The notes under the pieces are model-generated. The model ran no database searches. It was not told where the DNA came from and saw only the letters and a program-made list of their open reading frames with translations. A stretch of 64,000 nucleotides of DNA from Gemmatimonadota bacterium (GTDB lineage: Bacteria > JAAXHH01): contig JAPPBT010000018.1 in assembly GCA_026702745.1 (NCBI GenBank), positions 32,259 through 96,258 on the forward strand, read 5' to 3'. The number at the start of each line of letters is the position of its first letter. Positions within the stretch are counted from its first letter, which is position 1. Of the stretch, positions 31,005-58,779 are shown one piece after another. The translations under genes and the position numbers were made by a program.

Positions 31005-32339
31005 ATGACCGATCTCTTCTCCGACCAGGCCGAAAAGCAACTCCAGCGGGAAGCGCCGCTGGCCTCCCGCATGCGGCCGGATTCGCTGGAGGGTTTCCTG
31101 GGCCAGCAGGGGCTGGTCGGCCGGGGACGCCTCCTGAACGAGTCCATCGAGCGGGACACGCCCTTCTCGATGATCCTGTGGGGTCCGCCGGGATCGGGCA
31201 AGACCACCCTCGCCTTCATCATCGCCCGCTCCACGGATTCGCATTTCGTCGCGTTGAGCGCCGTGAGCGCCGGCGTGAAGGACCTTCACAAGGCAACCGC
31301 CGAGGCCCGCGACCGGCTGGGCATGCACGGCAAGCGGACCATCCTGTTCATCGACGAGATCCATCGCTTCAACAAGCTGCAGCAGGACGCCGTGCTGCCG
31401 ACCGTGGAGAACGGCACGCTGACCCTCATCGGCGCGACCACGGAGAACCCGTCTTTCGAGGTCAACAACGCCCTGCTGTCCCGCTGCCGGGTACTCCGCC
31501 TGGAGCCGCTTTCGGAGGAGGACCTGCAACGGATCGTCCGCAACGCGCTGGAGGACGAAGAACGCGGTCTGGGCGGGAGGAACATCGAGTTGGACGACGA
31601 GGCGGCCGCGCACCTGGCTGCCGTGGCCGGCGGCGACGCCAGGATCGCCCTGAATACCCTCGAAGTGGCGGCCATGACCACGCCGCGCGGCGACGGGAAC
31701 CGGATCCGGCTTACCGTGAAGGAGATCGACGAAGCGCTGCAGCACCGGTCACCGCAGTACGACAAGGGCGGGGACTGGCACTTCGACGCCATTTCGGCCC
31801 TGCACAAGAGCGTGCGGGACTCCGATCCGGACGGCGCCCTCTACTGGCTCGCCCGGATGCTCATCGCCGGCGACGATCCGCTCTACATCGCGCGCCGGAT
31901 CATCCGCATGTCCGTGGAGGACATCGGACTGGCCGACCCCTTCGCCCTGACCCTGTCCACCTCGGCCCAGCAGGCCGTCCATTTCGTGGGCCAGCCCGAA
32001 GGCGACCTGATGCTCGCCCACGCGGTGGTGTACCTGGCTACCGCGCCGAAGAGCAACGCGGTCTACGCGGCCTTTTCGAAGGCGCGGCAGGACGCGGAAC
32101 AGACGAGCGACGAGCCCGTGCCCATGCACCTGCGCAACGCGCCGACCCGCCTGATGAAGGAAATGGGCCACGGCAAGGGATACAAGTACGCCCACGATTA
32201 CGACGGGGCGTCCGTGGACCAGGAGCATCTGCCCGAGTCCATCAGGGGGCACCGCTACTACGAACCCACCGACCGGGGCCGCGAAGAGAAGATCCGCGCG
32301 TGGATGGAGAAGATGCGGAAGGTCAGGGACGGAGGATGA
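31005..32339 (+). CDS. rarA: Replication-associated recombination protein A (AAA+ ATPase)
   Basis: Walker A GPPGSGKTTLA, Walker B ILFIDEIHRFNK, sensor/arginine finger region and MgsA C-terminal helical domain; start at M10 (MTDLFS...). Confidence 0.85.
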   Translation: MTDLFSDQAEKQLQREAPLASRMRPDSLEGFLGQQGLVGRGRLLNESIERDTPFSMILWGPPGSGKTTLAFIIARSTDSHFVALSAVSAGVKDLHKATAEARDRLGMHGKRTILFIDEIHRFNKLQQDAVLPTVENGTLTLIGATTENPSFEVNNALLSRCRVLRLEPLSEEDLQRIVRNALEDEERGLGGRNIELDDEAAAHLAAVAGGDARIALNTLEVAAMTTPRGDGNRIRLTVKEIDEALQHRSPQYDKGGDWHFDAISALHKSVRDSDPDGALYWLARMLIAGDDPLYIARRIIRMSVEDIGLADPFALTLSTSAQQAVHFVGQPEGDLMLAHAVVYLATAPKSNAVYAAFSKARQDAEQTSDEPVPMHLRNAPTRLMKEMGHGKGYKYAHDYDGASVDQEHLPESIRGHRYYEPTDRGREEKIRAWMEKMRKVRDGG

Positions 32340-50992: not shown

Positions 50993-52033
50993 ATGAAAAA
51001 ATCGACCTGGATCCGGTGGGTCGCACTTTCGGCCGTTAGCATTTCGATTGCGCTGTTAAACAGCTTCGCCACGGCCCAGAACCACGCGCCGAATCCGTAC
51101 ACCACCGTAGAAGGCATATGGGGCAAGCTGGGAGGGGACAGGACCTGGGGCTCCACGAGCGCGGTCTTCCCGGCCCAGGACGGCAGCGGGAACATCTGGG
51201 TGGCGGAAAGATGCGGCCAGAACTCCTGCGTCGGCAAGGAGGACGTGCCGCCGATCCTGCTTTTCGACAGCGACGGAAACCTGCTGAAGAGCTTCGGCGC
51301 GGGGATGTTCGTCTGGCCCCACGGCATCTTCGTGGACACGGAGAACAACGTCTGGGTGACGGACGCCCGGGGCGGTGTGGGTATCGGCCACCAGATACAC
51401 AAGTTCAGCGAGGATGGGGAGTTGCTGATGAGCCTGGGCATCGCTGGAGTGGCGGGCGAAGGGGACGGCATCTTCAACCAGCCTTCCGACGTCCTGGTGG
51501 CGCCTGACGGCAGCATTTTCGTGGCGGACGGTCACGGTTCCCGCGGCAACAACCGCATCGTCAAGCTGGCGCCGAACGGATCGTTCATCAAGGCCTGGGG
51601 TGAAACGGGACAGGCTGCCGGCCAGTTCCGGGATCCCCATGCGCTGGCCATGGACTCCCAGGGCCGGCTCTACGTCGGCGACCGGGGTAACGCCCGGCTC
51701 CAGATCTTCGACCAGGAAGGCGAGTATATCGCCACCTGGACCCAGTTCGGCCGACCGAGCGGCCTCTTCATTGATGCGAACGACGTGCTTTACAGCGCCG
51801 ATTCCGAGTCTAATGCGACCTGGGGGGCCAACCCCGGCTGGAAACGGGGCATCCGCATCGGCAGCATCCGGGACGGCGGCTTCATATCGGCCTTCATCCC
51901 CGATCCCGTGGTAGACGCCGATAACGCCGGAACGACCGGAGCGGAAGGCGTGGCTGTGGATGCCATGGGGAACGTATACGGCGCCGAGGTCGGACCCCGC
52001 ATGTTGCGGAAGTACGTCATCACCGGGGAATAG
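50993..52033 (+). CDS. NHL-repeat beta-propeller protein, secreted
   Basis: Signal peptide MKKSTWIRWVALSAVSISIALLNSFATAQ; repeated NHL-like blades (...NIWVAE..., ...NVWVTD..., ...SIFVADGHGSRGNNRIVK..., ...RLYVGDRGNARLQIFD...). Confidence 0.75.
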   Translation: MKKSTWIRWVALSAVSISIALLNSFATAQNHAPNPYTTVEGIWGKLGGDRTWGSTSAVFPAQDGSGNIWVAERCGQNSCVGKEDVPPILLFDSDGNLLKSFGAGMFVWPHGIFVDTENNVWVTDARGGVGIGHQIHKFSEDGELLMSLGIAGVAGEGDGIFNQPSDVLVAPDGSIFVADGHGSRGNNRIVKLAPNGSFIKAWGETGQAAGQFRDPHALAMDSQGRLYVGDRGNARLQIFDQEGEYIATWTQFGRPSGLFIDANDVLYSADSESNATWGANPGWKRGIRIGSIRDGGFISAFIPDPVVDADNAGTTGAEGVAVDAMGNVYGAEVGPRMLRKYVITGE

Positions 52034-52129
52034 GCGGCTGAGGAACGGCGATCGGCGTAGGCGACTGCCGATTGGGCGGCTGCCGATTGACGACCGGCGA
52101 AGATCTGTTCAAATCGACCGCATTAACCG

Positions 52130-52180
52130 AAAAGGCGCGGTAAGTGGAACGAAACGGATTCCACGGACCGCGCCTTTTGC
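52130..52180. terminator. Bidirectional rho-independent terminator (AAAAGGCGCGGT ... ACCGCGCCTTTT with inner GTGGAA/TTCCAC stem)
   Basis: Long GC stem flanked by A-run 5' and T-run 3', between convergent genes. Confidence 0.55.
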
Positions 52181-52191
52181 TATTCCGGTGA

Positions 52192-52476
52192 TCAGGAACC
52201 GGATGCCCCAGGTCCGCCCGGACCACACGCGCTGCCCGCACCACTCGCACCGCCCGCACCACTCGCACCGCCCGTACCACTCACTTCTGCGGGATTTTCG
52301 ACGCCAGCGATGGCCGCTTTGAAACGGTTGATGGCCCGTTCGAATTTCTCGAGGCATCCGGGATTGCAAAACCCCACAACGTGACCTCCAAATTCCGTCA
52401 GTGAATCGGCCTGTACCGGCTTGCCGGACCAGGGGCAGGTCTTATTGATGCAGTCGACGATTTTGAGATCGGGCAT
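52192..52476 (-). CDS. YHS/TRASH-domain metal-binding protein with Gly/Ala/Ser-rich tail
   Basis: DCINKTCPWSGKPV...GHVVGFCNPGCLEKFE matches the TRASH/YHS pattern (C-x4-C ... FC-x3-C-x3-F). Start taken at M3 (SD GAGGAGGA 7 nt upstream); ATGA overlap with the upstream gene's stop. Tail encoded by 18-nt DNA repeats. Confidence 0.55.
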   Translation of the reverse strand: MPDLKIVDCINKTCPWSGKPVQADSLTEFGGHVVGFCNPGCLEKFERAINRFKAAIAGVENPAEVSGTGGASGAGGASGAGSACGPGGPGASGS

Positions 52477-52478
52477 CG

Positions 52479-54248
52479 TCATTCCTCCTCGTAAATCGCC
52501 TCGCCGCGGCTCAGTCGCAGCGCGATATGAGCGGTCTGGTTGAGCGCCCGCTGAGTGGGGGCGTGGGCGGCGAGATACCGGGCCGTGGCGATCAGCACGT
52601 GGTCGGCCTCGGCGCGTCCTTTCAGTTCCTCGTACTGGCGAATGCCCGCCTCGAGCATCTGGAAGCTGTGGAACTCGGCATCCTCCCGAAGCAGCGAGAT
52701 CGCGAGCGTTCGGAACAGCCGGTCCACCGGGTGTCCGTCGGCCAGGTAACGGTAGACCAGCCTGGCGGCCGGCTCCACCCGCTGCTGCGTGTCCAGTTCG
52801 GTCAGAAACGTGTCGAGTATCTCGTCGGTCTCGCCGGCCAGTTCGGCCGTGGCCTTATCGCCCGGCAACCGCGCGGGCGGCACGTTGAGGAAACGGTCCA
52901 GGTACACGGCCATGGCACCGTGAAAGACGCCGCGGATCAGCTCCGGGGAACCCGTCCGCTTCAGGGCCTGGTGCAGGGCGTTCGCGTAGGTGAAGGTGTG
53001 CAGCACCGTGATCCAGTCGTTGAACTCGTTCTGCGTGTGGAACCGGGCGATGCGGAGCGCCGCGGCGTAGGTGACCGCCTGGCTGAGCTGCAGCGGCGTC
53101 ATGCCTTCGCGCAGGAGGGCCAGCATGGTGTCCACTGTGGCCTGGGGATCGTCCCCCAGGATCACTTCGGCCAGTTCGCCGGGGCCGTCCCACGCGTATC
53201 CATTGGATGTCGATGCCAGCGCACCGGGTAACTCGGCATTGGCCCCACGCAGGATGGCGGCCAGGTCGACGGGATGGCGCCAGGCGTTTCGTTCCTCGCT
53301 GCGCGCCGCGGCGCAAAGCTGACCGACCGTACTGGGCAGCACTTCATCGGCGTGCTCCCAGCCGATGTGGTCCAGCAGTTCCGTGGACTTGTTGATGAAA
53401 TCCGCGACGTGCCCGCCGTCCAGGAACACGCGATCCGTGGCGGCGCTCATCATCATGTCCACCAGCAGCGCAGGTTCACTGCCCATGGACACGGCCGTAA
53501 GCAGGCACCGCGTAGCGCCTTCGGTGTCGCGCACCTCGACGAAGCGGCGGAACCAGCGCTTCAACTGCTCGAACGAGAGGTTCTCCGTATCCAGGGGCTG
53601 CAGGTCGAACCTCGGCGGCTGTCCGTTGCTGTCCCGGGCGACATGCGTCAGTCCCTGGTATAGCGGCAGGATCTGCTCGTCCCGGGGCAGATAGCTGCAC
53701 AGGTTCGTCATCGCGGCGAGGATGGTCAGGCCGGGACCCCAACCGGACGATCGGTACCGCACGCCATAACGGCCGCCGGTCTCGGCGATATCCTTGTAGG
53801 ACACCCCCGATTTCAGCAGGGCGATCACGGCCTTGGCATTGACCAGCGAGATGTTCTGCTCCAGGCCTTCTCTCAGGCGGTTGCGCCAGTACTCCGCGTC
53901 GCCCGACTGGTCCCGCGAACCCGAAACCCAAACGTCCCCGTTCCGGGTCTCGACCGCGTACACCGGCACGTCGTCCGCGAAGAGATCGAAGGTGCAACCG
54001 CTCTCCAGGTCGAAATCCGCGTGGTGCCAGTGGCAGGTCAGAATGCCGTCCTTGATCGTGCCGCGGTGCAGTGGGAAGCCCATGTGGGGACAGCGGTTGT
54101 CCACGGCGTGCACCTGCCCGTCACCGTGGTGGAACACGGCGATCGGGCCGTCGTGGCCGTTGACGACGATGCTCCCCTTTTCCTTCAGTTCGTCCATCGA
54201 TGCGACCCGGATCGGATCGCGCAGGGCTGTTGTCGGGGTGCTGTTCAT
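52479..54248 (-). CDS. Rieske [2Fe-2S]-domain protein fused to a ~470-aa domain of unknown function
   Basis: Rieske motifs CPHMG...CHWHH (CxH-x17-CxxH); start at M6 after AGGAG SD; the C-terminal domain is unrecognised. Confidence 0.7.
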   Translation of the reverse strand: MNSTPTTALRDPIRVASMDELKEKGSIVVNGHDGPIAVFHHGDGQVHAVDNRCPHMGFPLHRGTIKDGILTCHWHHADFDLESGCTFDLFADDVPVYAVETRNGDVWVSGSRDQSGDAEYWRNRLREGLEQNISLVNAKAVIALLKSGVSYKDIAETGGRYGVRYRSSGWGPGLTILAAMTNLCSYLPRDEQILPLYQGLTHVARDSNGQPPRFDLQPLDTENLSFEQLKRWFRRFVEVRDTEGATRCLLTAVSMGSEPALLVDMMMSAATDRVFLDGGHVADFINKSTELLDHIGWEHADEVLPSTVGQLCAAARSEERNAWRHPVDLAAILRGANAELPGALASTSNGYAWDGPGELAEVILGDDPQATVDTMLALLREGMTPLQLSQAVTYAAALRIARFHTQNEFNDWITVLHTFTYANALHQALKRTGSPELIRGVFHGAMAVYLDRFLNVPPARLPGDKATAELAGETDEILDTFLTELDTQQRVEPAARLVYRYLADGHPVDRLFRTLAISLLREDAEFHSFQMLEAGIRQYEELKGRAEADHVLIATARYLAAHAPTQRALNQTAHIALRLSRGEAIYEEE

Positions 54249-54294
54249 GATGATACTCCTCATACTGCTTTATCGATGATCGTGCATTGTATCT

Positions 54295-54331
54295 GAATGG
54301 AATATACGTGTTACCATTCAATATATGTAAC
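54295..54331. promoter_or_regulatory. Overlapping inverted repeats GAATGG-N13-CCATTC and GTTAC-N12-GTAAC in a ~130-nt AT-rich divergent region (also 10-bp palindrome TGCACGTGCA at 54421-54430)
   Basis: Seen in sequence; positioned between the Rieske operon start and the divergent regulator start, so likely operators. Confidence 0.3.
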
Positions 54332-54495
54332 CCAATCCAATAAATCAATATTATTATTTATATTATATATTTAATTTTTATTGTTCCATATTTGGGATAG
54401 CATGTTACAATAGATAGAGATGCACGTGCAGTAGGCACCGGCACCGCATTGGTTCTGCATTGGATAATCAGCCGCTTCGTTCGCGGAGAAGGAAC

Positions 54496-55122
54496 ATGCC
54501 ACACACTGAAGGCACCACCCGCCGTCAGATCCTGGAATTGCTCAAACGCAAGGGCGAAATGACAGCCGGTCAACTCGCCAGGGAGATCGGGATCACTTCG
54601 ATGGGCGTTCGCCAGCACCTCAGCGGACTGGAGCGCGACGACCTGGTCGAGACGCGAGTCGTACGGCAGGACCGGGGCAGGCCCGCCCACTATTTCGTCC
54701 TGACGGATGCCGCTGAGCACCTGTTCCCGGTACGGTACGGCCAACTCGCGGTGGAACTGCTCGAACAGATCGCCGAAACCGACGGACCGGAGAAGGTCGA
54801 CAGCCTCTTCGCCTTGCGCACGGAACGGCTTGAAGCGGAATACAAACAACAGATGGCCGGGAAACCCGTCTCGGAACAGGTGCGCGTTCTCGCAGAAATC
54901 CGGGACCGGGAGGGATACATGGCCGAATCCCACGCGGACGACGATGAGTACATCCTGGTGGAGCATCACTGCCCGATCTACGAGATAGCGCGCCGTTTCC
55001 CGAAGGTCTGCCAGTTCGAACAGGAATTGTTCGAGCGTACGCTCGATGCCGGGGTGCGCAGGGACGAGCACAAGATAGCCGGAGACGACCACTGCCGGTA
55101 CCTGGTACGGAAACGAGACTGA
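54496..55122 (+). CDS. Winged-HTH (ArsR/SufR-like) transcriptional regulator with Cys/His-rich C-terminal sensing domain
   Basis: ArsR-type HTH (RRQILELLKRKGEMTAGQLAREIGITSMGVRQHLSGLERDDLV); C-terminal HHCP-x10-C...DHC cysteines; SD GGAGAAGGAA before ATG at 54496. Confidence 0.6.
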   Translation: MPHTEGTTRRQILELLKRKGEMTAGQLAREIGITSMGVRQHLSGLERDDLVETRVVRQDRGRPAHYFVLTDAAEHLFPVRYGQLAVELLEQIAETDGPEKVDSLFALRTERLEAEYKQQMAGKPVSEQVRVLAEIRDREGYMAESHADDDEYILVEHHCPIYEIARRFPKVCQFEQELFERTLDAGVRRDEHKIAGDDHCRYLVRKRD

Positions 55123-55161
55123 CGGCCGGCTTCGCGTCTTTCTGAGTGCAGGACAGTTCCC

Positions 55162-56187
55162 ATGAGCAAACCACGCATCTGGTACCTGCCAACGCCTTCC
55201 CACACCGCCGGGGTTTTCAAGGATGAGACCTACCGGCGGTTACTGGCCGGCTTCGACGTGGTGGAAAACAGGACGGACCGCGCGTTGACCGCTTCAGAGG
55301 TGGAGGAAGGGATCGCCGGCTTCGACGGGCTGGTCACCGGTTGGGGCGTCATGCCGATCAGCGCAGCCGCGCTGGAGCGGGCGGACCGGCTGAAGATCGT
55401 CGTCCACTCCGCTGGATCGGTCAAGTACCTGTTCACTTCGGAGATGGTAACCGGCCAACTGTTGCCCAGGGGGATCCGCGTCATCAGCGCGCGTGGCGCC
55501 ATCGCCCTCAACGTGGCGGAGCACGCGGTCGGTGCGCTGATCATGATGAGCCGCAGGTGGGTTCACGACGCCCTCAACATCCGGGAGCGGGGCATGTGGC
55601 GGGACCCGGACAAGAACTGGTCGAACCAGTTCCTGCGCGGCGCCACGGTGGGCATCGTCAGCGCCAGCATGGTGGGACGGGAGGTGATCCGGCTGCTCCG
55701 GTCCTTCAACGTCCGCATGCTCGTCTGCGATCCCTATCTGAGCGATTGGGACGCCGGCCGCATGAACGTGGAACGGGTAGACCTGAACACACTCTTCGAA
55801 TCGTCGGACATGGTGACTGTCCACGCGCCGTCCATTCCGGAGACGGACCGGATGATCGGCGCGGAGCAACTGCGGCTATTGCGAGACGACGGCGTGCTGG
55901 TCAACACCTCGCGGGGATCCGTCCTGGACCACGACGCGCTGTACGAAGAAGCGATGACCGGCAGAATCCAGGTCCAGCTGGACGTGACCACGCCCGAGCC
56001 CCTGCCGCCCGACCATCGGCTGCGCGCGCTCCCCAACGTGGTCATCACGCCCCACAGCTCTGGAACCGGCGCCTTTGGCCACCTCGAGATCGGCGAGATC
56101 ACGCTGGGTGCGCTGGAACACTTTTATTCGGGACGGGAACCTGTGCCTGGGGAGGTAGACCTGGGAAACTGGGCGCAGATCGCGTAG
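55162..56187 (+). CDS. D-isomer-specific 2-hydroxyacid dehydrogenase family protein
   Basis: NAD-binding GIVSASMVGREV and catalytic R/E/H arrangement (TSRG...TPHSSG). Confidence 0.85.
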   Translation: MSKPRIWYLPTPSHTAGVFKDETYRRLLAGFDVVENRTDRALTASEVEEGIAGFDGLVTGWGVMPISAAALERADRLKIVVHSAGSVKYLFTSEMVTGQLLPRGIRVISARGAIALNVAEHAVGALIMMSRRWVHDALNIRERGMWRDPDKNWSNQFLRGATVGIVSASMVGREVIRLLRSFNVRMLVCDPYLSDWDAGRMNVERVDLNTLFESSDMVTVHAPSIPETDRMIGAEQLRLLRDDGVLVNTSRGSVLDHDALYEEAMTGRIQVQLDVTTPEPLPPDHRLRALPNVVITPHSSGTGAFGHLEIGEITLGALEHFYSGREPVPGEVDLGNWAQIA

Positions 56188-56219: not shown

Positions 56220-57083
56220 CTAAACCCGCCGACGCGCCGCCATCACCGTATTCTCCATCAACATGGCCACGGTCATGGGACCGACGCCCCCGATGCGGGG
56301 CGTGATCCATCCGGCGACCTCGGCCACATCGTCGTCCACATCGCTGAGGAGCTTCTTGCCCTTGCGCGTGATCCCTGCGGCCACCACGGCCGCGCCGGGT
56401 TTCACCATGTCCTTGGTGATCAAACCGGGCGAACCCGCGGCGGCGATGATGATATCGGCTTCGCGCAGGTGGGCGGCCATGTCGGGCACGGCCGAATGCA
56501 GTACGGTGACCGCGGCGTTGCAGTGGGGTCGTTTCAAGGACAGCAGAAGAGCCAGCGGCCGGCCGATGGTCAGTCCGCGGCCCACGATCGTCACGTTCTT
56601 GCCTTCGATGGGCACGCCGTAATGGACCAGCAGGGCGAGGATGCCGTTAGGCGTGCAGGGCAGGGGCCCCGACCTGCCGATCACCAGCCGGCCCAGGTTG
56701 ATGGGATTGAGCCCGTCCGCGTCCTTGTCCGGCGCTACGGAGAGCAGCGCTTCGTCCTCGTCGAGTCCATCCGGCAGCGGGATCTGAACCAGGATCGCGT
56801 CGACCTCCGGATCTTCGTTCATGCGGCCGATGGTCTGCAGCAGCTCTTCCTGTGAAGTGGATGCGGGCAGGTGGGTATGGATGGACCGGATGCCGATCTC
56901 CTCGCACGCCCGGTGCTTCATGGAGATATAGGTCGCGCTGGGCCCGTCGTCGCCGGCCAGAATCGTCGCCAGCCCAGGCGTCACGCCCCGCTCCCGCATT
57001 TCGGCCGTCTCTTTCACGAGCCTGCCCTGCATCTCGTCGGCCAGCTTGCGGCCGCTCATGATGACCGGGCCATTGCAGGTCAT
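56220..57083 (-). CDS. folD: Bifunctional methylenetetrahydrofolate dehydrogenase/methenyltetrahydrofolate cyclohydrolase
   Basis: Aligns along its length with E. coli FolD (YISMKHRACEEIG, ILVQIPLP, PCTPNGI, GVGPMTVAML). Confidence 0.9.
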   Translation of the reverse strand: MTCNGPVIMSGRKLADEMQGRLVKETAEMRERGVTPGLATILAGDDGPSATYISMKHRACEEIGIRSIHTHLPASTSQEELLQTIGRMNEDPEVDAILVQIPLPDGLDEDEALLSVAPDKDADGLNPINLGRLVIGRSGPLPCTPNGILALLVHYGVPIEGKNVTIVGRGLTIGRPLALLLSLKRPHCNAAVTVLHSAVPDMAAHLREADIIIAAAGSPGLITKDMVKPGAAVVAAGITRKGKKLLSDVDDDVAEVAGWITPRIGGVGPMTVAMLMENTVMAARRRV

Positions 57084-57339: not shown

Positions 57340-58779
57340 CTACTCGATCCCAGCCGCCTTCTTCGCCACATCCATGCACCGTAGCAGGTCGTATCCACGG
57401 AATATGGTGATCTTCTGCGCCTCGAGCGAACCCTCGGCATGGATGGCCAGCAGCTCGTGGTACCCGCCGAAATCCGAAGCCGTGAGGTCGCGGATGAGAT
57501 TGATGGCCTTCATCCGGTCCATGGTCGGCACGCCCTTGCGGCCGCCCAGGTAGCGGTCCAGGTCGCCCCGTGTTTCCTCGTTGTGCCAGTCTGCTTCCGA
57601 CGGGCCCGTGACCAGCAGGGCGCCGGCGATGTCCTGCACATCCCGCACGGCCTCGTGGTAGTTGTTGGCGAAATGGTACTTGGCGATGTTGGTCGTGAGC
57701 GTGTCCGGCACCGCGATGCCGTCCACCACCTTGCAGTCCATGGCGGCCGCGCGGGTCAACGCGCGGACCGTCTCCGTGTAGGTGATGAGCCGCGTGGCCT
57801 TGTCGCGGATGTGGCTGGCCTTCTCCACCCCGTTGTACACGGCGATCAGCGAGGCCGCGCCGATGAAGAGGTCGAGGAGCGGCGGCTTGTAGGACACGGC
57901 CGTGTACCGGTGGAACTCCACGAAGGCGTTCGCCAGCACCCCGGCGAAATCCCACTCGCCCGCCAGGAAGACGCGCTCGTTCGGCACGAACACGTCGTCG
58001 AACACGGTCAGGGTCTCCACCAGGTGGTGTTTCGAGCTGACCGGATGGTGATAGGTGCTCTCGCCCGAGAACCCGAAGGGACTGGCGATGAGCCGGACCC
58101 CCGGCGTGTTGACGGGCACGGCGAAGGCCACGGCATAGTCCTGGTCCTCCTCCGAGATCGCCCGGGTGGGCAGCACGACCACTTCGTCCACGAAGGCGGT
58201 CCCCGTGGTATGGGCCTTGGCGCCGCGGACCACGATGCCGTCGGGCCGGCGCTCCACGATGCGCACATAGTAGTCTGGATGGGTCTGCTGGGACGGCAGG
58301 CGGCTGCGGTCCCCCTTGGCGTCGGTCTGGGCCACGGCCATGCTCAGGTCGCGGTCGCGGCATTCGGCGTGGTAGTTCTTCACGCGGTCCAGGTATCCGG
58401 TGCCATGCTTCTCGTCGATCTGCCGCGCGACGAGCCGGAGCGAGAACAGGGCGTCCGTGCCGATCTCCTTGATGAGCAGGACCACCCCGCTGCCCTCGCG
58501 GGTGCTCGTCTCGATCATCTCCCTGCGCTTCAGCAGGTCCTCCGTGTTGGCCGGCGGGATGAAGTAGCGGCTGACGCGCTCACCCGTCTCGGGACATATC
58601 GCCGTGAACAGGTCCCGGTGCGCTTCGTCCTCCGCGAGGTGATAGTCCAGGGCCGTGTGCTCGGCGCCTACGCGCAGTTCCGGATGTTCCATGAGGTCCG
58701 GCACCCGCTCCCCGCGAAAGTAGATCGTCCTTCCGTCCCGCAATCCTTCCAGGTATTGTTCGGCCGTTCTCAAACCCAT
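57340..58779 (-). CDS. 4-hydroxyphenylacetate 3-hydroxylase (HpaB) / 4-hydroxybutyryl-CoA dehydratase family protein
   Basis: 479 aa; family size and conserved blocks (GLRTAEQYLEGLRD..., ...KAHTTGTAF...). Confidence 0.75.
   Translation of the reverse strand: MGLRTAEQYLEGLRDGRTIYFRGERVPDLMEHPELRVGAEHTALDYHLAEDEAHRDLFTAICPETGERVSRYFIPPANTEDLLKRREMIETSTREGSGVVLLIKEIGTDALFSLRLVARQIDEKHGTGYLDRVKNYHAECRDRDLSMAVAQTDAKGDRSRLPSQQTHPDYYVRIVERRPDGIVVRGAKAHTTGTAFVDEVVVLPTRAISEEDQDYAVAFAVPVNTPGVRLIASPFGFSGESTYHHPVSSKHHLVETLTVFDDVFVPNERVFLAGEWDFAGVLANAFVEFHRYTAVSYKPPLLDLFIGAASLIAVYNGVEKASHIRDKATRLITYTETVRALTRAAAMDCKVVDGIAVPDTLTTNIAKYHFANNYHEAVRDVQDIAGALLVTGPSEADWHNEETRGDLDRYLGGRKGVPTMDRMKAINLIRDLTASDFGGYHELLAIHAEGSLEAQKITIFRGYDLLRCMDVAKKAAGIE

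Follow-up and report, generated by a model that had tools for sequence, protein, structure and literature searches.

We analyzed a three-gene locus at positions 52192–55122 of a 64,000-nt window (the whole stretch of DNA under analysis, positions 32,259–96,258 of the forward strand of contig JAPPBT010000018.1, assembly GCA_026702745.1) from a Gemmatimonadota bacterium (JAAXHH01), in which a regulator gene is divergent from the genes of a Rieske-domain fusion protein and a small YHS-like protein. The best explanation of this locus, to which we give a little less than even weight, is that a clade-specific, Fe-S-sensing repressor of the COG2345 family controls a putative Rieske redox enzyme of new architecture. 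The three open reading frames (ORFs), the AT-rich divergent region, and the terminator-like hairpin are all present where the initial annotation of this DNA had placed them. In the proposed mechanism, which would apply to one clade of Gemmatimonadota-like bacteria, the regulator would control the divergent gene pair through a conserved AT-rich spacer, binding it with its winged helix and a Gly-Arg-Pro (GRP) AT-hook and repressing transcription both ways, that is, the Rieske-YHS transcript on one side and the regulator/2-hydroxyacid dehydrogenase transcript on the other. Loss of the cluster, or its damage by oxidants, NO, or iron shortage, would relieve this repression. The low-potential-type Rieske [2Fe-2S] domain would pass electrons to an all-helical domain with a putative BTG13/PaD/BruN-type fold, where H285, H/D448, and H532 may form a mononuclear metal site with Q535 in the place of a carboxylated lysine. 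The fusion protein would then be functionally analogous to the alpha subunit of a Rieske oxygenase, but with a catalytic scaffold unrelated to it. The YHS protein would be a lineage-specific accessory, possibly for metal handling. Our analysis establishes the structures of the genes, the hallmarks that place the regulator in its family, the patterns of conservation, and a resemblance in fold; cluster binding, repression, metal site, catalysis, and substrate are predictions.

The regulator gene (54496–55122, + strand, 208 aa) has a good Shine-Dalgarno sequence and encodes an ArsR-type winged helix-turn-helix (HTH) at aa 8–54 (Pfam HTH_20, 8.2e-11; HTH_5, 6.1e-9). Against the NCBIfam model of cyanobacterial SufR (TIGR02702), the protein aligned over its full length with a score of 142.8 bits, below the cut-off of 178.8, and a search of its profile against Protein Data Bank (PDB) sequences matched only HTH domains. 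In a 2025 preprint on the cryo-EM structure of M. tuberculosis (Mtb) SufR, the COG2345 SufR-like family is defined by three features: an R-R-H recognition motif; a GRP AT-hook, which recognizes flanking DNA rich in A/T and depends on it; and a [4Fe-4S] cluster, held in Mtb SufR by C179, C192, E195, and C220; members of the family also control unrelated pathways, as in the case of ArnR (bioRxiv 10.64898/2025.12.26.696629). Our regulator has the same domain order as factors of this family (Mtb SufR Rv1460, cyanobacterial SufR, Corynebacterium ArnR), and carries R39-Q40-H41 (RQH) at their R-x-H recognition-helix motif and G61-R62-P63 as the AT-hook in the wing. Its predicted cluster ligands C159, C172, E175, and C200 follow a C159-x12-C172-x2-E175-x24-C200 spacing that equals that of the Mtb SufR ligands. 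Across 25 homologues, down to 31% identity, R39, Q40, G61-R62-P63, and the four ligands are invariant, and H41 is kept in at least 90%. Because of the identical ligand spacing together with the GRP motif, assignment of the regulator to the COG2345 SufR-like [4Fe-4S]-family transcription factors is strongly supported, and the protein probably holds a [4Fe-4S] cluster on C159, C172, E175, and C200. The earlier proposal of a SufR-like, Fe-S type regulator with a Cys-rich C-terminal part is therefore borne out by the AT-hook and the exact ligand set, although the cysteine spacing is C-x12-C-x27-C and not the x10 that had been given. The regulator is not SufR proper, which we ruled out by the sub-cut-off score, by the lack of the extra CPIC cysteine of cyanobacterial-type family members, and by the neighborhood: SufR proper adjoins suf genes, whereas this gene adjoins the Rieske-fusion gene, and no suf genes lie nearby in the window or the syntenic loci, where the neighbors are 2-hydroxyacid dehydrogenase, FolD, HpaB, NHL, and AnmK genes. 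In a cyanobacterial metagenome-assembled genome (MAG; L082, 5968–8383), a 217-aa SufR-like gene with a CPIC motif is convergent on a Rieske-fusion gene with a 14-nt end overlap, and the genes that come next are RidA-like and GNAT-like rather than suf. Regulator homologues of less than 50% identity adjoin different genes (for example, those of PIG-L deacetylases or a kinase); at two of these loci, on unrelated metagenomic contigs (L086, 2941–4624; L087, 4001–5629; 44–47% identity), the adjoining genes encode PIG-L family deacetylases, which may represent a different regulon for this SufR-like subfamily.

Conservation of the divergent arrangement links the regulator to the Rieske gene. The three genes occur together in the window, in L003 (Gemmatimonadetes MAG SB0665_bin_8, Rieske protein 96% identical), and in L089, and the YHS gene adjoins the Rieske gene at these loci only; L004 has the regulator and no YHS gene. 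At L083 and L085 (Rieske 67–70% and regulator 59% identical), the Rieske gene is divergent from the regulator and 2-hydroxyacid dehydrogenase genes. Neither the regulator nor the YHS gene is present at L001/L002, L005, L006, and L007, where the Rieske gene (89–93% identical) stands between 2-hydroxyacid dehydrogenase and NHL genes. This pattern across loci suggests that the pairing of Rieske gene and regulator is probably ancestral in the clade and was repeatedly lost. The initial annotation had named a lack of conserved synteny as evidence against its three-gene module; since the trio is confined to the window, L003, and L089, and the regulator-Rieske pair is kept down to 59% regulator identity, we uphold the module in part only. 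Because the divergent arrangement persists to that identity and the AT-rich spacer is conserved as well, we infer that the regulator controls the Rieske gene, a claim of the annotation for which these patterns argue without proving it.

The spacer itself (54264–54495) has 36% GC, compared with 62% for the window. Alignment with L003, L089, and L004 revealed a strongly conserved, Rieske-proximal AT-rich core (about 54286–54412), whereas the regulator-proximal, GC-rich part is variable with many indels. The target DNA of COG2345 factors is A/T-rich, as is the presumed target here, and the GRP AT-hook offers a simple reason for such an odd AT-rich spacer. The promoter scan identified a promoter-like element, TTGATT-N17-TATATT (54320–54348, − strand), which is predicted to serve the Rieske-YHS transcript and whose 17-nt spacing is retained in L089 despite a 14-nt insertion. 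On the + strand, a conserved TACAAT/TATAAT at 54406–54411 could be the −10 box of the regulator gene. It is overlapped by the inverted repeat TATTGT-N22-ACAATA (54379–54412), which is conserved in three of the four orthologous regions, with one mismatch in L004, and a related motif, TTTATTG/ACAATAAA, recurs in the spacer; as predictions, these are our best operator candidates. The three palindromes to which the annotation had drawn attention exist (at 54295, 54310, and 54421), but they are not conserved in the orthologous spacers, and inverted repeats are only weakly enriched in the spacer of the window (13 versus 6.1 ± 3.1 in shuffled sequences for arms of at least 5 nt; 3 versus 1.6, not significant, for arms of at least 6 nt). 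GAATGG-N13-CCATTC is intact in the window and L089 alone among the four spacers compared, and the TGCACGTGCA repeat falls in the variable part; these palindromes are probably not the operators. The SufR boxes CAAC-N6-GTTG and ACACT-N5-TGTGA were not apparent on reading the spacer, for which no pattern search was run, and Rfam returned no family for 52000–55300, only a sub-threshold chance match. At the regulator-less loci L001, L005, L006, and L007, the Rieske gene is preceded, in the roughly 200 nt ahead of the match, by a different, less AT-rich region that carries a conserved AATGACAA...GT(G/A)TACTCAT(A/G)T element, suggesting that the promoter was replaced together with the loss of the regulator.

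The Rieske-fusion ORF (52479–54263, − strand, 594 aa as listed) probably begins at the ATG at 54248, giving 589 aa, because an AGGAG-N7-ATG follows the first ATG and the homologues are 589 aa long. Its N-terminal Rieske [2Fe-2S] domain (53919–54215, − strand, aa 17–115) contains CPHMG...CHWHH with the ligands C58, H60, C77, and H80, and its match to Pfam Rieske PF00355 (aa 18–90, 3.7e-15) places it within that family; it is nearest in similarity to the ferredoxins of oxygenase systems and to NirD. At least 8000 homologues of the fusion protein were found at E ≤ 0.001, typically of 577–600 aa, and the 120 best of them are nearly full-length. At least 597 loci were confirmed in species-representative genomes of many phyla, with hosts among the Gemmatimonadota, Acidobacteriota, Chloroflexota, Latescibacterota, Poribacteria, Armatimonadota, Cyanobacteria, and Bacillaceae, as well as Bradyrhizobium, Paraburkholderia, and one haloarchaeon. 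When the C-terminal domain alone was used, 1871 clusters at 50% identity were obtained, in which an N-terminal Rieske domain nearly always precedes it by about 110 residues. This Rieske-helical family is large, widespread, and uncharacterized; our literature search found nothing on fusions of a Rieske domain with a helical domain, and no paper naming DUF4243 together with Rieske. Several paralogues occur in some genomes and even at single loci. Two paralogues stand near each other in Poribacteria (L028, 6001–7755 and 8098–9942; L029 likewise), with C-terminal domains about 36–37% identical to that of the window protein, and one Dehalococcoidia contig (CBDBDT010000002.1) carries two copies at separate loci (L049, L058).

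The C-terminal all-alpha domain (52482–53906, − strand, aa 120–594) had been described as unassignable, and at the level of known sequence families this holds. The approximately 470 aa past residue 115 have no Pfam or NCBIfam match, a Pfam search of 49 family members at E ≤ 10 produced only noise plus weak MgsA_C and CMD matches, and the domain profile matched none of the PDB sequences, including the BTG13, PaD, and BruN chains. The predicted fold, however, resembles that of the DUF4243 non-heme-iron dioxygenases. The AlphaFold (AF2) model is of high quality over the full length (predicted local distance difference test [pLDDT] 89.3, predicted template modeling score [pTM] 0.88) and for the domain alone (pLDDT 89.2), and past aa 120 it is entirely helical, with about 24 helices. 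Foldseek was repeated with the model of the C-terminal domain alone, the list for the full-length query being dominated by Rieske matches; BruN (8yxs) then came out on top (probability 1.00). The best whole-domain structural matches by two methods are BTG13-type enzymes (BTG13 7Y3W, PaD 8Z4Q, BruN 8YXS, GedK), and part of the domain resembles the C-terminal oligomerization domain of MgsA. BTG13, PaD, and BruN are DUF4243 non-heme-iron dioxygenases with a site of four His and a carboxylated Lys, the ligands being H63, H166, H317, H394, and K397 in PaD and H63, H166, H308, H386, and K389 in BruN (PMC12173810, PMC11371914, PMC11575538). The Rieske-helical domain has an invariant polar core of its own: H285, D288, N291, K292, E295, E324, N412, D416, W417, E527, H532, and Q535 are kept down to 32% identity with isolated single-sequence exceptions, while Asp takes the place of H448 in 17 of the 49 members and Asn that of H422 in 11 of them. 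Alternation of His and Asp is frequent at metal ligands. The spacing H285-163-H/D448-84-H532-x2-Q535 parallels H166-151-H317-77-H394-x2-K397 of PaD, as well as H166/H308/H386/K389 of BruN, which is at most suggestive of H285, H/D448, and H532 corresponding to three of the His ligands and Q535 standing in for the carboxylated Lys.

Comparison with known enzymes sets the family apart on two sides. The DUF4243/BTG13-type enzymes are the nearest structural matches to its all-helical domain and have roughly collinear His residues and H-x2-(K/Q) motif; they occur without a fused partner, belong mostly to the natural-product chemistry of fungi or Streptomyces, receive electrons from a hydroquinone substrate, and possess both the first His ligand and the carboxylated Lys, whereas the Rieske-helical family is found across prokaryotes, is nearly always Rieske-fused, and has Gln and no first His. 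On this sequence and model evidence, any relationship of the C-terminal domain to DUF4243 is remote at best, and the domain does not belong to that family. The alpha subunits of Rieske oxygenases (such as naphthalene, carbazole, and dicamba oxygenases) likewise combine an N-terminal Rieske domain with a larger domain bearing conserved His and carboxylate residues, but their catalytic domain is beta-rich and of the SRPBCC type, unlike the all-alpha domain here, and the beta subunit, ferredoxin, and reductase of such systems are not conserved near Rieske-helical genes. A canonical Rieske oxygenase alpha subunit, with its beta-rich catalytic domain of the Ring_hydroxyl_A/VanA_C type and 2-His-1-carboxylate iron site, was rejected because no catalytic-domain Pfam or NCBIfam match exists past aa 115 and the model is helical past aa 120.

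Several observations weigh against a Rieske enzyme under the control of this regulator. No sequence-level link to DUF4243 was found, as none of the 49 members matched PF14027 even at E ≤ 10, and the Foldseek match to BruN has a template modeling score of just 0.41–0.43 at E 0.02. The ligand mapping onto PaD and BruN was made by spacing alone; the first His of the four-His set has no counterpart in the family, the invariant Q535 stands where the carboxylated Lys would be, and Gln cannot be carboxylated. At the regulatory level, no inverted repeat of at least 5 bp is common to the spacers of the window, L003, L089, and L004, and the close relatives with 89–93% identical Rieske proteins have neither the regulator nor the YHS gene, which implies that the Rieske protein can function without them. 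In terms of partners, the Pfam neighbor census revealed no reductase or other partner conserved beside the Rieske gene: among 133 nearest neighbors, the commonest family was SDR with 7. All-against-all clustering of the flanking ORFs at 83 loci gave no cluster shared outside close relatives, and comparison of 75 more distant loci revealed no neighbor conserved beside the Rieske gene.

Fusions to further domains, found in 2 of the 150 best representatives and each on a single contig, also count against catalysis, since they point to sensing. The first (L093, 789–2993; P0294) is one 734-aa ORF comprising a Rieske domain, a helical domain that keeps the whole invariant core, and an adenylate/guanylate cyclase domain (PF00211, aa 576–722), with a MerR gene divergent upstream. 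The second (L094, 1519–4050; P0288) is an 843-aa ORF that joins ECF sigma70 regions 2 and 4 to a Rieske-helical module in which H285, one of the putative ligands, is replaced by Glu; a SnoaL-like gene, an unknown gene, and an ordinary 592-aa paralogue (L094, 5107–6885) follow it, and a TetR gene lies upstream. The cyclase fusion suggests that the Rieske-helical module can act as a sensor input, and these rare fusions make a sensor role a serious rival, though we consider it unlikely. The Rieske-helical protein would then sense redox state or a ligand instead of catalyzing a reaction. Its conformation would shift with the redox state of its Rieske cluster, or when the helical domain binds a ligand or metal, and this shift would act on partners or, in the rare relatives, on a fused output; in the window, the protein would form one tier of a redox-signaling cascade under the SufR-like factor. 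Transcription factor genes adjoin several family members (SufR-like here and in L082, MerR, LuxR-type response regulators, TetR), which fits this view, as do the lack of a conserved metabolic partner or reductase in the neighbor census and the resemblance of part of the helical domain to an oligomerization domain. Regulators beside catabolic enzymes are commonplace, however, and the two fusions may be artifacts of assembly or gene calling. The best whole-domain structural matches are enzymes, and the dense invariant polar core, in which His and Asp alternate at one position, has the appearance of a metal or catalytic site; the putative enzyme remains our preferred reading.

It is quite unlikely, in our estimate, that the locus forms no functional module at all, with a stand-alone Rieske protein, a regulator serving mainly itself and the 2-hydroxyacid dehydrogenase, a recently inserted YHS gene, and coupling by chance. 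The D-2-hydroxyacid dehydrogenase family gene (55162–56187, + strand; Pfam 2-Hacid_dh_C, 6.7e-43) starts 40 nt past the regulator stop, with no terminator found by a scan of the interval, and in L083 and L089 the regulator stop overlaps its start; it is probably co-transcribed with the regulator. The Rieske gene stays divergent from this dehydrogenase gene even in the 89–93% identical relatives that have neither regulator nor YHS gene. Elsewhere, the surroundings of YHS homologues are unrelated (a giant polyketide synthase [PKS], for example), and distant regulator homologues adjoin PIG-L deacetylase or kinase genes rather than Rieske genes. Such observations speak for the absence of a module. 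In contrast, conservation within the spacer is highest in the Rieske-proximal AT-rich core, which contains the promoter-like element of the Rieske gene, the divergent pairing is retained down to 59% regulator identity, and the cyanobacterial locus L082 provides a second, independent adjacency of SufR-like and Rieske genes; these favor regulation of the Rieske gene. A role of the Rieske fusion in Fe-S cluster or iron homeostasis (repair, storage, or delivery), in analogy to the control of suf by SufR and with the YHS protein as metal chaperone, is improbable: the best-known relatives of the regulator do control Fe-S biogenesis, regulator and target would both be Fe-S proteins, and YHS is presumed to be a metal-binding domain, but suf, isc, and iron-uptake genes are absent from the surroundings in the window and at the syntenic loci, the families recurring next to family members at 75 loci include none for Fe-S biogenesis, and COG2345 members such as ArnR control unrelated pathways.

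The small ORF next to the Rieske gene (52192–52482, − strand, 96 aa as listed) probably starts at the ATG at 52476, giving 94 aa, as this ATG, 6 nt downstream of the first, yields the MPDL of the homologues and has GGAGG 8 nt upstream. The first ATG does lie on the Rieske stop, in the ATGA overlap that the initial annotation had reported, and since the likelier start is only 6 nt downstream, tight coupling to the Rieske gene holds either way. The junction is TGATG in L003 and a 2-nt gap in L089; in all three genomes that have the YHS gene, its start is within 2 nt of the Rieske stop or overlaps it, and judged by these junctions the two genes are translationally coupled. The protein scored 20.6 bits against YHS (PF04945), under the cut-off of 30.3; 26 of 29 sampled homologues matched this family (best 5.4e-9), supporting the YHS-like character proposed before, and by these matches it is probably a divergent YHS-domain protein. 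A search of its profile against the PDB found nothing. The 558 homologues, mostly of 60–70 aa, have a C(x4)-CPWSG...GFCNPGC core in which C16, C39, C43, and CPWSG are invariant and C11 is not. Small size and the core motif ...Y.G..V.FC..GC...F are common to YHS proteins, but the usual C-x-x-C appears here as C-P-W-S, with the second Cys lost and three Cys invariant. The window copy also has an added Gly/Ala/Ser tail, encoded by an 18-nt tandem repeat of 3.8 copies (52214–52282, − strand; Tandem Repeats Finder [TRF] score 103), which differs in length in L003 and P0172/P0174 and which most homologues lack. The YHS gene is a lineage-specific add-on at this locus. In a Rhodothermaceae MAG, a small YHS-like gene closely precedes that of a polyketide synthase of >3400 aa. 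Homologues of 60–81 aa (L090–L092, 4001–4183; P0181, P0203, P0205, P0222, P0267) are named "glutathione S-transferase" in NCBI, which is implausible for their size.

Beyond the YHS gene, an NHL-repeat gene is convergent with it, and the two are separated by a 49-nt terminator-like hairpin (52130–52178, both strands). Its predicted RNA folding energy is −34.8 kcal/mol (z −5.8) for the + strand and −33.2 kcal/mol (z −5.3) for the − strand, a stability matched by 0 of 200 shuffles, and its flanks are AAAA and TTTT, giving only four U's on each side. The hairpin was not called by a consensus terminator scanner, because its stem and loop exceed the limits of the scanner; the same AAAAGGCGCGG... hairpin element is also present in L003 and L004. 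The stable fold on both strands makes the bidirectional terminator suggested earlier credible. Two direct copies of (G/C)CTGCCGATTG(G/A)(G/C)(C/G) lie at 52060–52100, between the NHL-repeat stop and the hairpin. On the other side of the locus, downstream of the 2-hydroxyacid dehydrogenase gene, a FolD gene (56220–57083) and an HpaB-family flavin monooxygenase gene (57340–58779) lie on the − strand, and SDR and PhyH genes come after HpaB in the syntenic loci. The proximity of a phenol-hydroxylating HpaB enzyme to a fold resembling that of hydroquinone dioxygenases could be either meaningful or coincidental.

In biodegradation and natural-product chemistry, Rieske oxygenases form a major class of enzymes, all known members of which, to our knowledge, have one catalytic fold in common. 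The only targets that we know for Fe-S regulators of COG2345 are suf and, for ArnR, nitrate-respiration genes. Against this background, it is possible, though doubtful, that the approximately 580-aa Rieske-helical family constitutes an unrecognized class of Rieske-dependent metalloenzymes in many bacterial phyla and at least one haloarchaeon, with a catalytic domain that is a distant, Gln-for-carboxy-Lys variant of the BTG13-type fold, a second independent invention of a Rieske oxygenase, and that in this clade it is switched on by a SufR-like Fe-S sensor unlinked to suf. If so, the combination of a Rieske cluster with a BTG13-like helical metal site would open new reaction space, and the fold of the four-His/carboxy-Lys dioxygenases would extend from fungi into most prokaryotic phyla. 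The locus would also provide a clean, testable third target for the COG2345 regulators, with an AT-rich operator region that fits their newly proposed AT-hook mechanism.

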